DNA of 63,383 bases, filler included, from Reclinomonas americana ATCC 50394 (GCA_048213135.1; 15 parts of 15 records of this genome joined end to end with filler, not necessarily neighbours in it); one strand, 5' to 3'; shown: positions 2,894 through 60,004, counted from the first letter of the whole stretch. Numbers and translations are program-made. The notes: generated by a model from the sequence alone, not told the origin.

Positions 2894-5827
2894 ATCGAGG
2901 GCAGCTTCGGGTCACATCACGTGTCGCCGCGCTTTCTCAACTCGGATCTGCTGAATCAGCTGGTGTGCGTGGAGGGAATCGTCACGCGATGTTGCGTTTC
3001 TCCGCCGCCCCCTCTCCTCCGTCGCTGATCGGTCAATGCTCATGTGCGTGCGTGTGATGGGGCAGGCTCGGTGGTGCGACCAAAGGTGGTGTCATCGGTG
3101 CAGTACTGCAAGGCCACACAGCAGTTTGTGCAGCGCGAGTATCGCGATTACACGTCGCACAAGTTGCGATCGACAAAAAGTGCCGTGATTTTGCGGTGTT
3201 GACGGAATGCTCACTCCCCACCCTCCTCCTTCTCCCATCCACAGTGGCGCTCCCACATCGAGTGTGTATCCGCAAAACGACGATGCCGGCAATCCGCTGA
3301 CCACCGATTTCGGTCTGTCGGTGTATCGCGATCATCAGACGCTGACGGTGCAGGAGATGCCCGAGTCGGCGCCCGCCGGTCAGCTGCCGCGCTCCGTCGA
3401 TGTGTTGCTGGAGGACGATTTGGTGGATGCATTGAAACCCGGCGATCGTGCCCTGGTTTGTGTTGCTCGTTTCTCTCCCCTCTCCAAGTAATGTGTATTT
3501 TTCACTCGCTCTGCGCGCACGCACAGATTGTTGGCACATATCGTGCTCTGCCGACTCGCGGCGGTGGCACCACTTCGGGCGTGTTCCAGACGCGTCTCAT
3601 TGCGCACCACGTCGCACCGCTCGTGAAGCAGTCGGTGGGCGATCTGTCCAAGTTCACCACCGGCGACATTCAGAACATTCGCAAGCTGGCCGAGCGTCCC
3701 GACGTGTTCGACGTGCTGGCCGACTCGATTGCGCCCTCCATCTACGGCCACCGCTACATCAAGCGTGCAATGCTGCTTCAGTTGCTCGGTGGCGTCGAGC
3801 GCAACCTGGCCACCGGCACGCACATTCGTGGTGACATTAACGTGCTGCTGGTCGGCGATCCATCCACCGCCAAGTCGCAGCTGCTGCGCTTCCTGCTGAA
3901 CACGGCCCCGCTCGCCGTGTCCACCACCGGCCGTGGATCGACAGGTGTCGGTCTGACGGCCGCCGTCGGCACCGATCCCGACACGGGTACGTTGGTGCAA
4001 CAAGAGACGCAAGTGCACTCCCTTCACTCACCTGCTGTCGTGTCGTGCAGGCGAGCGACAGTTGCAGGCGGGCGCCATGGTGCTGGCCGACCGCGGTCTC
4101 GTGTGCATCGACGAGTTCGACAAGATGAGCGAGGTCGATCGCGTGGCCATGCACGAAGTGATGGAGCAGCAGACGGTGACGATCGCCAAGGCCGGCGTGC
4201 ACACGTCGCTTAACGCACGGTGTTCAGTGTTCGCCGCCGCCAATCCAGTGTACGGGCAGTACAACCGCGAGCGCGATCCGGGTCACAACATTGGCCTGCC
4301 CGACTCGCTGCTGTCGCGTTTCGATCTGCTTTTCATCGTGCTCGACAATCTCAGCGCGGAGCACGATCGCCAGATTGCCGACCACGTGCTCCGATTGCAT
4401 CGCTTCCGTGCCGATGGTGGCACCGACGCCGCCCCCAATGTGACCGGCAGTGGTGCACGAGCGGGAGGTCAGTCTGTGCTGCGGGAGGAGAGCGCGTGTT
4501 TCCCTCGGTGTGCTCACTTGTGTCCTTAGAACCCTTGTCGGCCGGTGGCATTGGTCTGCAGCTGGAGGATGCCGACGACGACCCGGAGCATCGCGAGACG
4601 CCAATGTTCCAGAAGTTTGACCGCAACCTGCACCAGCAGCAGCACCTGCTGACCATTGACTTCCTCAAAAAGTACATCATGTACGCCAAGGCGCGTGTGC
4701 AGCCGCGTCTCACGGAGGAGGCCGAGGAGGCCATTTCCCAAGCCTACATGGAACTGCGCTCGAAAGAGGGCCAAAAGGTGCCGTACGCCTCACAAATATC
4801 GCTTCGCTGTCTGGTGTGCGTGTACTCATGTGCTCTCGCTAAAAGACGCTGCCGATTACACCGCGCTCGCTCGAGTGTCTTATTCGCCTGTCGACGGCAC
4901 ATGCCCGGTGCCGACTCAGCCCCGACGTGACCAAGGCCGACGCCAACAAGGCCATTCAGATTGTCAACTTTGCGCTCTTCCTCGAGTCACAGATGCGAGA
5001 GCAGGCCAACATGGCGGCCGGTGAGTGAGAGAGGGGCCAAGAAGAGATACAGGAGTAGTGTGTGGGTCGCCATGTCTCACTTGTTCTTTTTCTCTCTTCT
5101 CTTTCTGTTTTGTATTTGTTATGTGCGGGAATGTGTCACAGGTGGTGTCAAGAAGAAGAAGCAGAAGAAGGCCAAGAAGGCGGCCAAGGAGGACGGTGGA
5201 GACGACGACGGTGATGACGATGACGATGGTGGCAATGCCCGTCGCCAGTCGTCGCGCCCCAAGCGCGCTGCGGCCTCCAAAAAGGCGATTGTCGACGATG
5301 CGTTTGAGTTTGGTGAGGATGGTGAGGACGAGGAGGACGAGGATGACGGCGCGGAGGAGGAGGAAGACGACGAGGTGATGGCGAAAAAGAAGAAACAGAC
5401 TGCAGCAGCACGACAGAAAAGGAAATCGAAGGATACGGGCTCAAGAAAGAAACAGCTCGGCGACGACGACGACGAAGAAGAAGAGGAGGAGGAGGAACAA
5501 CAGGAGGCCGCCAAGGGCAGTGGCAAGAAGAAGGCCACAGCCAAGGTGGTCCAGCAGCAGCAGCAGAAGAAGAAGAAGGCAGGGGCAGGGGCGGCAGCGG
5601 GGGACGACATTCCCCGCATGGAATTGGAGGCTGAGTTGGTGGACAACATTCGCAGCTCGTTCCAGCGTGCCATGCGCCGTGTCGGTAATGTGGAGGCCTC
5701 CATTGACAACCTGGTGGCGCAGATGATTGGCGTTTCAGAGGCGCAGCTGTTGTCGGTGCTCGGTGGCCTCAGCGACGAGGGAGTGGTGTTTGTGGACATG
5801 GAGCAGCGAATGGTCTATATGTTGTGA
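2894..5827 (+). CDS. MCM3: DNA replication licensing factor MCM3, 5' partial, 7 introns
   Basis: [36 protein letters not shown], Walker [42 protein letters not shown]; acidic/Lys-rich linker before a C-terminal domain. Confidence 0.95.
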
Positions 5828-6050
5828 GCGCGCATGGTGTGTGTGTGTGGGGAGAGAGAGAGAGGAGGGAGGGAGTGTATATGTGCGCGCGTAGTGCAGT
5901 GTGCGGTGCAGAGTCGATGCGGTTGCGACGGTATTGTCGATTTTGTGAATTGACTGCTCTTCGAATGGCGACTAGCAGCCTCCGCTCTCGCACACACACA
6001 CACGCAACTTCAATTTCGGACTCATCTGTTGATGACATGTGCGGTCGAAG

Positions 6051-6699
6051 ATGGCAGCGATTAAGCGAACGTGCAGTGCCGAGTGTCGAGCGCCACCGGG
6101 GCCGGCTTACTCAACCGAGGTGCCTGTTGGTTGGTTACATACACCAGCCAATGCACCAATCATCCCCCAAAGGCAAAAACCGCCCGTGCGTGTACGTGTG
6201 CACGATCGATCGGAACCGGAGCGCCAGCATGGCAAAGATACTGTAAGTAGCATTCAACTCTGCAGTGCGTGTGGGCGCGTGTACTTGCGTGATTCGCAAG
6301 CTCGGAAATGTGTGCGTTGTGCGTATCTCGACTTTCAGACATTTGTGATGCACACCTGTTTTCCGCTTTCGGAGACGGCGGCGTTCATGAGTTCCAATCG
6401 CCGCCTGTTGCAGTCGGTCCTCGCCTGCAAAAACTCGCAGCCGCCCACATGCATCAGTGAAGTGCGTCCGAGCGCGTGTTGCGCAAGTGTGGCCAGGTGC
6501 GGAGTTCGAAGAACAACAATCGGACAAGCCGTCCACTTGCGCTCCACACACGCAGTCTCCCACTGCGACGCACACCGCGAGCTGCATGGAGAGCGCGCGC
6601 GCACGTGTCTGTGAAAGAAGACAGACAGAGGAAGATGCGCAGCGCATGTTGAATTTGCAGCGGGCCACGGCTTGCACTTGCCGCGCCAGCGGACTTTGA
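6051..6699 (+). CDS. Small Cys-rich hypothetical protein, intron-containing
   Basis: ATG, GT-AG candidates and several CxxC-like pairs; no family recognised and exon structure uncertain. Confidence 0.3.
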
Positions 6700-59170: not shown

Positions 59171-59339
59171 TGAGTGAGCAATGGAGGAACTCATGTGGTG
59201 CACAAGGACAACAGCACCAAACCTCGGTGTAGAGCTTTTNNNNNNNNNNNNNNNNNNNNNNNNNNNNNNNNNNNNNNNNNNNNTTAATTAATTAANNNNN
59301 NNNNNNNNNNNNNNNNNNNNNNNNNNNNNNNNNNNNNNN

Positions 59340-60004
59340 GACGCACCCCTCGTACTGGTTGCCGACGTCGGGCAGCTTGTCCTTGGTGCACTGCAGGAGG
59401 TAGTTGCGCAGGAAGAGGCCGCGGAGCGGGTGCTGTACACCCTTGCACATCTCCGCCAGGTCCTTGAGAATGTCACGCGCAGGCGCTTGCTTGCTGCGAA
59501 TGTACACGCTGCCGACAGTAACCAGCAAATACCTGCGCCACGAACATCCACTGCGTGGTGGGCAACATGCAGAGACCGCGTGTAGAAATGCGAGTGTACG
59601 CAACAGACGAGGAACAATGTTGCCTGCATGCTGGGCAATCTCATACAGCTCCTCGACACTGGCACCACGCACTGAGTGCTCATCCCAGAAATGCTCCTCC
59701 AGATGCCGCATTGCGTCGCACACTTGCATGTAGAGCGCATAATAGTTGCGGGGCGTCAAGAGCGACGTGCGCAGCTCATTGAGCAAGTTATTGGCGTGCA
59801 CGAGGGCCTTCTTCAGGTGTTGTTGGTCCTACGCATACCACCCCTCCGCGGTCAGCGAGGCGGCAAGCGTCGTAGTGGTGATTTGGCGTGAAGAGACAAG
59901 ACACTCACCAATTCACGCTGCATGAAGAAGCCCTGCTGCTGCACGATCTTGACGGCCTCATCGAACCAGATCTTCTGCTGCTGTTCCGCAGTCAGCTCGG
60001 TCTC
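59340..60004 (-). CDS. VPS35: Retromer subunit VPS35, N-terminal exons
   Basis: [54 protein letters not shown]; first exon not located. Confidence 0.95.

Follow-up and report, generated by a model that had tools for sequence, protein, structure and literature searches.

Both a shifted (+1) and a bulged register of pairing between U1 small nuclear RNA (snRNA) and the 5' splice site have been proven in human cells, and the human shifted example presented has an A at -1, the last base of the exon (Tan et al., 2016; PMC4856993). This paper refers to Roca and Krainer (2009; its ref. 10) for shifted (+1) pairing of atypical 5' splice sites, and in its account all validated non-canonical registers together make up about 1.5% of human donors. 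The Andalucia godoyi genome is reported to contain few introns, all GT..AG, and the description of these introns gives no donor motif (PMC7050145). In a literature search that left most subscription journals outside its reach, no description was found, for jakobids or any other protists, of GTTGCG or of a donor class read in a shifted register. To our knowledge, the only setting in which shifted U1 registers have been seen is mammals, where they act as a rare rescue mode. The present work concerns introns that begin with GTTGCG in a window of 63,383 bases, by which the whole stretch of DNA analysed is meant. This class is real, abundant and tied to a base other than G at -1, and its members match the usual donor motif once they are slid by one base. 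We think it rather probable that the major spliceosome removes these introns as ordinary short GT-AG introns, and that there are two donor motifs, the second of which would be recognised in a +1 shifted register.

The window is made up of 15 contigs, with artificial spacers (N44 + TTAATTAATTAA + N44) between them. Eukaryotic sequence with numerous short introns makes up nine of them (1-20985 and 51168-63383, 32.5 kb), and the other six (21086-51067, 29.5 kb) are bacterial. An earlier note on this DNA listed 23 introns starting with GTTGCG and three further sites of the form GTT-N-N-G, and all of them are present on the strands claimed. The hexamer is not enriched in the chimeric window as a whole, where 66.1 +/- 9.5 copies are expected and 79 occur, a number attained in 10 of 100 shuffles. 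When it comes to the eukaryotic 32.5 kb, GTTGCG is found 62 times (38.8 +/- 6.1 expected) and GTTGCGT 24 times (9.6 +/- 3.2 expected), and the maxima in 300 first-order Markov simulations were 61 and 19, respectively. The bacterial 29.5 kb holds 17 copies of GTTGCG and one of GTTGCGT. The donors also tend to continue with a T at +7 (17 of 23), which is seen in none of the nine sense-strand GTTGCG within long open reading frames (ORFs; p = 1.8e-4).

Introns were located with a protein-to-genome aligner using BLOSUM62, which accepted introns only as GT..AG of 40-400 nucleotides (nt) and used no further splice signal. Full-length homologues served as queries, eight each for MCM3, aldehyde dehydrogenase (ALDH) and VPS35, and one distant homologue (P0257) for the Tom40-like gene. 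The GT and AG dinucleotides hold by construction of the aligner, and the real test is the ungapped alignment across the MCM3, ALDH and VPS35 junctions. In these three genes removal of the introns restores both the frame and the homology, as is required of GT-AG introns, and NAGQVCSAGTR and IVPRLYLLVTVG are among the ungapped conserved stretches regained. A junction placed one base off was also considered; it would give the same messenger RNA (mRNA) only if the next exon began with G, which is not generally so. The anchored set comprises 42 introns, each backed by a majority of the homologues, or in Tom40 by the single one. Left out of it were the ambiguous stretch 4408-4597 and all predictions in the low-complexity tail of MCM3, the ALDH predictions 19392/19372, 19005/18920 (acceptor ambiguous), 16790 and those at the N-terminus, 57911/57836/57893, 57094 with its neighbours, 59222 and 60389 in VPS35, and 8802/8829 in Tom40. 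Since the dropped rows include three putative class members, the count of the class in the 42 is conservative.

GTTGCG is the commonest donor hexamer of the anchored introns (9/42), followed by GTGCGT and GTGTGT with five each. Independent positions predict 0.28 GTTGCG, and in 100,000 column shuffles the count never exceeded 4, which bears out the earlier claim of a routine and abundant class. With GTTCCG and GTTCTG included, the class comprises 11 of the 42. An MCM3 exon search gave 80 metagenome loci, used as controls, and 33 genome loci, none of them close (best full-length 61%). The same pipeline applied to the 80 metagenomic loci found well-flanked introns in 41 of them, 79 in all, with no GTTGCG and a single member of the wider class. 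Taken together, the analysis supports routine use of a shifted donor motif in this protist.

The ordinary donors follow the pattern G|GT(G/A)(T/C/A)GT, with G at -1 in 28 of 31 and G at +5 in about 83%. They never have G at +4, A-A is rare, and none of the 42 anchored introns has the textbook donor GTAAGT, of which the eukaryotic 32.5 kb contain a single copy. In the class, by contrast, only one of 11 donors has G at -1 (Fisher 2e-6), and in all 29 listed members this base is A in 13, C in nine, T in six and G in one. The -1 position of the class (A 13/29) thereby resembles the -2 position of ordinary donors (A 0.44). Seen from the exon, an end in G is followed by an ordinary donor in 28 of 29 cases, and an end in any other base by the shifted class in 10 of 13. 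Donors with T at +3 and G at +5 (GTTTGT, GTTTGC) keep G at -1 in four of four, and it is therefore the shift of the downstream G that matters, not T at +3 itself. On a scoring matrix built from ordinary donors, their +1 and +2 omitted, the class reaches -9.9 bits in its own position and +4.8 bits after a slide of one base, compared with 4.66 for the ordinary donors themselves; this is the one-base-shift geometry that had been proposed, and the slid fit follows in part from the class definition (T at +3, G at +6), while the matches of +4 G, +7 T and +8 G are independent of it. Written out, H|GTTGCGTG equals G|GTGCGTG with a T for the G in second place and the cut one base upstream, at the first GT.

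In their remaining features the introns of the class are like the ordinary ones. The median length is 73 nt in the class and 70 nt in ordinary introns, a CTNAY branch motif is found in 9/11 and 22/31 at a median distance of 20 and 21 nt, and the acceptor is CAG in 11/11 and 27/31, respectively. None of the 42 introns has U12-like signals (donor RTATCCTT, branch TCCTTRAY), and with 3' halves like those of ordinary introns a U12 type is ruled out. Recent copies of one introner-like element are likewise ruled out by the intron interiors, where mean local alignment scores show no excess similarity (7.63 within the class, 7.49 within ordinary introns and 7.65 between the two). The MCM3 intron at 2991 shares its position and phase with introns in five other eukaryotic MCM3 loci. 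Those five introns have ordinary donors and likewise follow an exon ending in T; here the intron splits a Cys codon. In at least this case, then, the intron is old and its donor has changed in place. The description of the class in the earlier note as an undescribed system was overstated, as the introns resemble ordinary major-type ones in all other respects and one of them sits at an ancient position.

The following mechanism would account for these observations. The usual motif, G|GTGNGT, would have G as the final exon base, and the second motif, H|GTTGCGT, would be employed where the exon ends in a base other than G, being the usual motif moved one base into the intron. The first G of the intron would then stand in for the last G of the exon, the U at +2 would face the partner of the usual +1 G, and UGCGU would pair in step in the same way as GCGU of ordinary donors. 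A donor-reading factor, most likely the 5' end of U1 snRNA, would bind both motifs alike, which relative to the cut amounts to a shift of +1. Later steps of the spliceosome would place the cut at the first GU of the bound stretch. It is U1 that presumably reads the donor, in a register that is probably shifted instead of bulged.

Several points weigh against a shifted register. All junctions are derived from protein homology or from ORFs, and the sample is small, 32.5 kb with 42 anchored introns that were hand-picked from the aligner output and lie in four genes. Predicted pairing with a standard U1 5' end, which may not be that of the host, gives the class a median of -1.4 kcal/mol (range +0.5 to -4.4) compared with -6.5 kcal/mol for ordinary donors, so that a shift without any change in U1 looks weak. 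At +5 the class also prefers C (10/11), which makes no pair with standard U1. Where -1 is not G the shifted and the bulged pairings are equal in number of pairs, so the argument against a bulge lies in the missing selection for G at -1.

The poor pairing with standard U1 speaks for a changed or an additional guide RNA acting on the same introns. The 5' end of U1 might have drifted, for instance with G and C in place of the two pseudouridines of other eukaryotes, to give perfect pairing with UGCGU, or a second U1 paralogue might be complementary to GUUGCGU. The class is nearly one sequence (TGCG in 9/11) compared with ordinary donors, which vary at +3 and +4, and the shortage of +4 G, A-A and GTAAGT (0/42) in the ordinary donors points in the same direction. 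With an assumed guide ACGCACC, predicted pairing with the two classes comes to -7.5 and -8.8 kcal/mol; biased as it is by G+C content, this is a thought experiment and does not count as evidence. In a diplonemid, which likewise belongs to Discoba, a second U1 whose 5' end is altered has been reported (PMC12621601), and this makes the idea less far-fetched. Rfam searches of the eukaryotic contigs, at gathering scores and at E <= 1, gave no snRNA gene and hence no direct support, and the class fits the ordinary motif slid by one without a second guide. A variant U1 or U6 snRNA, as proposed in the earlier note, thus gains no support here, and neither does altered U1C or Prp8-type proofreading. 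The 5' end of U1 is furthermore among the most conserved RNA sequences of eukaryotes, which counts against a change in it. On balance we find this explanation unlikely. The same tentative standing applies to the idea of two donor codes on one spliceosome, in which a co-evolved ACGCACC-like U1, or a second paralogue, might read G-N-U-G-C-G-U as a fixed block, the first GU would set the cut, and the presence or absence of an exon-final G would decide which motif is used.

The usual U1 register might alternatively be kept, a single U at +2 or +3 forming a bulge. Such +2/+3 bulge registers are proven for human donors (PMC4856993, in the part dealing with registers), and a single duplication of T turns GTGCGT into GTTGCGT with the mRNA unchanged. 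The downstream match is identical to that of the shifted reading, and to this extent the class can be described, as it was in the earlier note, as GTGCG with one T inserted. The bulged-U register implied by that description does not hold up equally well. In it the -1 base would still face C9 of U1 and G would be expected as in 28 of the 31 ordinary donors, but G is found in one of 11 anchored members and one of 29 overall. A true register shift is favoured over a bulged U because this G has been lost (1/11) and A at -1 has risen, and we regard the bulge as improbable.

That the class is an artefact of hand-splicing, a product of chance or a set of copies of one mobile or duplicated intron is largely refuted and very improbable: eight of the 23 sites depend on gene models, the fuller of which had the class built into it, the five introns of a tandem-repeat gene probably stem from few ancestral introns through tandem duplication, and the hexamer is not enriched window-wide, but the donor-blind aligner recovers ten GTTGCG donors at non-homologous positions in four unrelated genes, the eukaryotic contigs show an excess of the hexamer, the control loci have none in 79 introns, and the intron interiors are no more alike than those of ordinary introns.

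The evidence for the 23 sites is of three kinds, with ten placed by the aligner, five by the frame and periodicity of the repeat gene, and eight by weaker gene models. Beyond the list of the earlier note, 54179 and 20228 (GTTGCG) and 13633 (GTTCCG) are likely members. Donor-blind ORF models built on codon scores alone were noisy, and in the fuller gene model the donor model already included the class, which makes its use circular for the sites in the DHHC, Usp and F-box/LRR genes. Seven sites (11851, 12069, 12870, 15728, 16124, 54362 and 55291) depend on ORF logic together with the gene model.

The two MCM3 introns lie on the plus strand. The first (2991..3065, GTTGCGT, phase 1) is placed by 8/8 homologues and its removal restores GIVTRCSVVRPK when compared with Seculamonas MCM3, while the second (3163..3244, GTTGCGA, phase 2) is placed by 7/8 with an ungapped alignment at the junction. 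The Tom40-like (Porin_3) gene, also on the plus strand, has four putative members. The introns 8071..8206 (GTTGCGT) and 8431..8503 (the variant GTTCTGT, with weak flanking alignment) were both chosen with the single distant homologue P0257. For 8829..8893 (GTTGCGG) a donor-blind ORF model and the gene model agree, but the site is ambiguous, as the aligner preferred 8802, an in-frame difference of 27 nt in a poorly conserved stretch. Removal of 9290..9362 (GTTGCGT) restores QYkFGIGLNYG in the alignment to P0257. A Tom40 protein fragment of a relative, found in a public run (P0256, 155 residues), is 67% identical over the Tom40 exon and continues past QYK as L-R, which is what reading through AAG|TTG CGT at 9290 would give. 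This hints that the GTTGCG donor at 9290 may be conserved in the relative carrying P0256. A search of metagenome and genome contigs with the Tom40 exon gave no match.

The ALDH gene is on the minus strand. Its class introns are 17563..17634 (GTTGCGT; 8/8 homologues), which restores NAGQvCSAGTR, 18235..18303 (the variant GTTCCGT; 7/8), 18427..18493 (GTTGCGT; 8/8), which is the sole member with G at -1, 18948..19005 (GTTGCGT), 19203..19263 (GTTGCGT; 7/8) and 19497..19571 (GTTGCGC). The donor at 19005 is chosen with 5/8 homologues and its acceptor is 18948 or 18935; the gene model takes 18948, followed by an exon of 8 nt. The donor at 19571 is chosen with 8/8, and its acceptor is 19497 in six and 19500 in two. 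On the plus strand, in the gene upstream of ALDH, 20228..20302 (GTTGCGT) is a likely intron indicated by sequence context and the gene model, and was not in the earlier list.

The ALDH gene has about 30 introns in 3.6 kb. It seems to contain micro-exons of 7 nt (ATGCTGG, 19196-19202), 3 nt (ATG, 19104-19106) and perhaps 8 nt (about 18940-18947), all on the minus strand, which are required for the conserved YYAGWAGK to be restored (7/8 homologues). At the junction 19322-19392 (minus strand) there is no convincing GT donor, and the best protein fit, LDGGK|PVA, needs an intron that begins with GCACAC. Alternative solutions are the addition of four residues or an odd acceptor.

VPS35, on the minus strand, has one member placed by 8/8 homologues, 59533..59604 (GTTGCGT), which restores IVPRlYLLVTVG. 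The variant 57767..57836 (GTTTCGT) is chosen with 3/8, including the closest (P0136), and is ambiguous by homology; the rival donor at 57911 implies an intron of 145 nt. The gene is split across two contigs (56322-59239 and 59340-60074, minus strand). The profile positions 94-156 end one of them and 218-326 start the other, and the two contigs are therefore genomic neighbours with a short gap between them.

The tandem-repeat gene with Ig-like units (51168-53587, plus strand) is a tandem array in which two kinds of unit, each about 95-105 residues long and encoded by one exon, alternate. It had been labelled a cadherin, a label without Pfam support; the search gave no cadherin match and only Big_9, at E = 0.044. 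The exons begin x-N/V-A-P-T/S..S-L-S, and a phase 1 GTTGCG donor closes each of them. Three successive exons have a single open frame, lengths divisible by three and ends at equivalent points of the alternating units. Exon frame and repeat periodicity place the phase 1 introns 51572..51654 (GTTGCGT), 51937..52007 (GTTGCGA), 52320..52385 (GTTGCGT) and 52671..52747 (GTTGCGA), the first and third of which are also given by a donor-blind model. The fifth intron, 53140..53204 (GTTGCGT), is placed by ORF logic and the gene model.

The remaining members are all on the plus strand. In the DHHC gene they are 11851..11925 (GTTGCGT; gene model, with weak ORF logic), 12069..12175 (GTTGCGT; gene model, with an uncertain acceptor on which two models disagree), 12870..12934 (GTTGCGT; donor-blind ORF model, ORF logic and gene model) and the newly listed 13633..13699 (GTTCCGT; donor-blind ORF model and gene model). 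The gene that had been labelled USP (15515-16270, plus strand) keeps these letters in the sense of universal stress protein (Pfam Usp) and is not a ubiquitin-specific protease. Its introns 15728..15793 and 16124..16187 (both GTTGCGT) are placed by the gene model, the first lying between profile positions 6-43 and 50-106, and the spliced end after the second reads MIVGSTADYLVHHAPCAVIVVR, which we take to be Usp-like. The Pfam profiles continue across these Usp exons, as they do across an ordinary intron of the DHHC gene at 13217. In the F-box/LRR gene, 54179..54244 (GTTGCGA, not listed earlier) has a CTGAC branch and CAG and is given by the gene model, with the acceptor at 54244 or 54283. Sequence context and the gene model indicate 54362..54433 (GTTGCGT; acceptor 54433 or 54454) and 55291..55363 (GTTGCGC).

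Pfam domains on the long ORFs of the window include WD40, aldose epimerase, MCM, Porin_3 (Tom40-like), a SET-associated domain, DHHC, Usp, aldehyde dehydrogenase and Vps35. The top MCM3 match is that of the jakobid Seculamonas ecuadoriensis (71%), and the best named matches of VPS35 are from Heterolobosea. Judged by these similarities, the host of the nine intron-rich contigs is probably a protist of Discoba, perhaps a jakobid. The closest genome (G001) matches the bacterial contigs only, and a eukaryotic contig has no match in it. The eukaryotic contigs appear to have contaminated a bacterial assembly or to have been co-binned with it. One bacterial contig has an Rfam match to the ALIL pseudoknot (35032-35148, minus strand, 111.8 bits), a frameshift element of IS3-type transposases.

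If the unlikely idea of two donor codes on one spliceosome held true, this would be the first organism in which a shifted U1 register serves as a main, selected mode of donor recognition and not as a tolerated exception. An organism with about one fifth of its introns shifted and a clean rule for the exon-final G would be a natural system for studying how U1 binding is uncoupled from the choice of cut site, and it would also inform on the co-evolution of donor motifs and snRNAs. Gene finders that use a single donor matrix would mis-splice about one fifth of the introns in this lineage.

Among known systems, the U12 introns of the minor spliceosome likewise present a second sharp donor consensus beside the major one, but unlike them the introns described here have no RTATCCTT-like donor or TCCTTRAY branch. 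Andalucia godoyi is not the host, as its genome is, in its published description, intron-poor (PMC7050145), whereas the ALDH gene alone carries about 30 introns here. The alternative U1 of the diplonemid S. specki also concerns Discoba, unusual donors and a possible adaptation of U1. The parts of that report dealing with U1 describe a variant gene that was found and donors that are G-rich or non-canonical (PMC12621601), whereas here the introns are GT-AG and the case is known from the donors alone. The +2/+3 bulge registers (Roca et al., 2012, as cited in PMC4856993) likewise show one additional U behind GU and then the usual downstream motif; they keep -1 in place with G favoured, whereas G at -1 is nearly absent here. 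The closest likeness is to the human shifted sites, in which G+1 of the intron replaces the exon G at -1, the later pairs move by one, -1 is not G (A in the test oligonucleotide) and the introns are of the major GT-AG type (PMC4856993, in its treatment of such sites). As described there, the human sites retain AAGU after the shift, while those found here have UGCGU, which is poorly paired by standard U1 and known from sequence alone. In the same account non-canonical registers together amount to about 1.5% of human donors, whereas the class described here makes up about 21 to 26% of the anchored introns and has the commonest hexamer.

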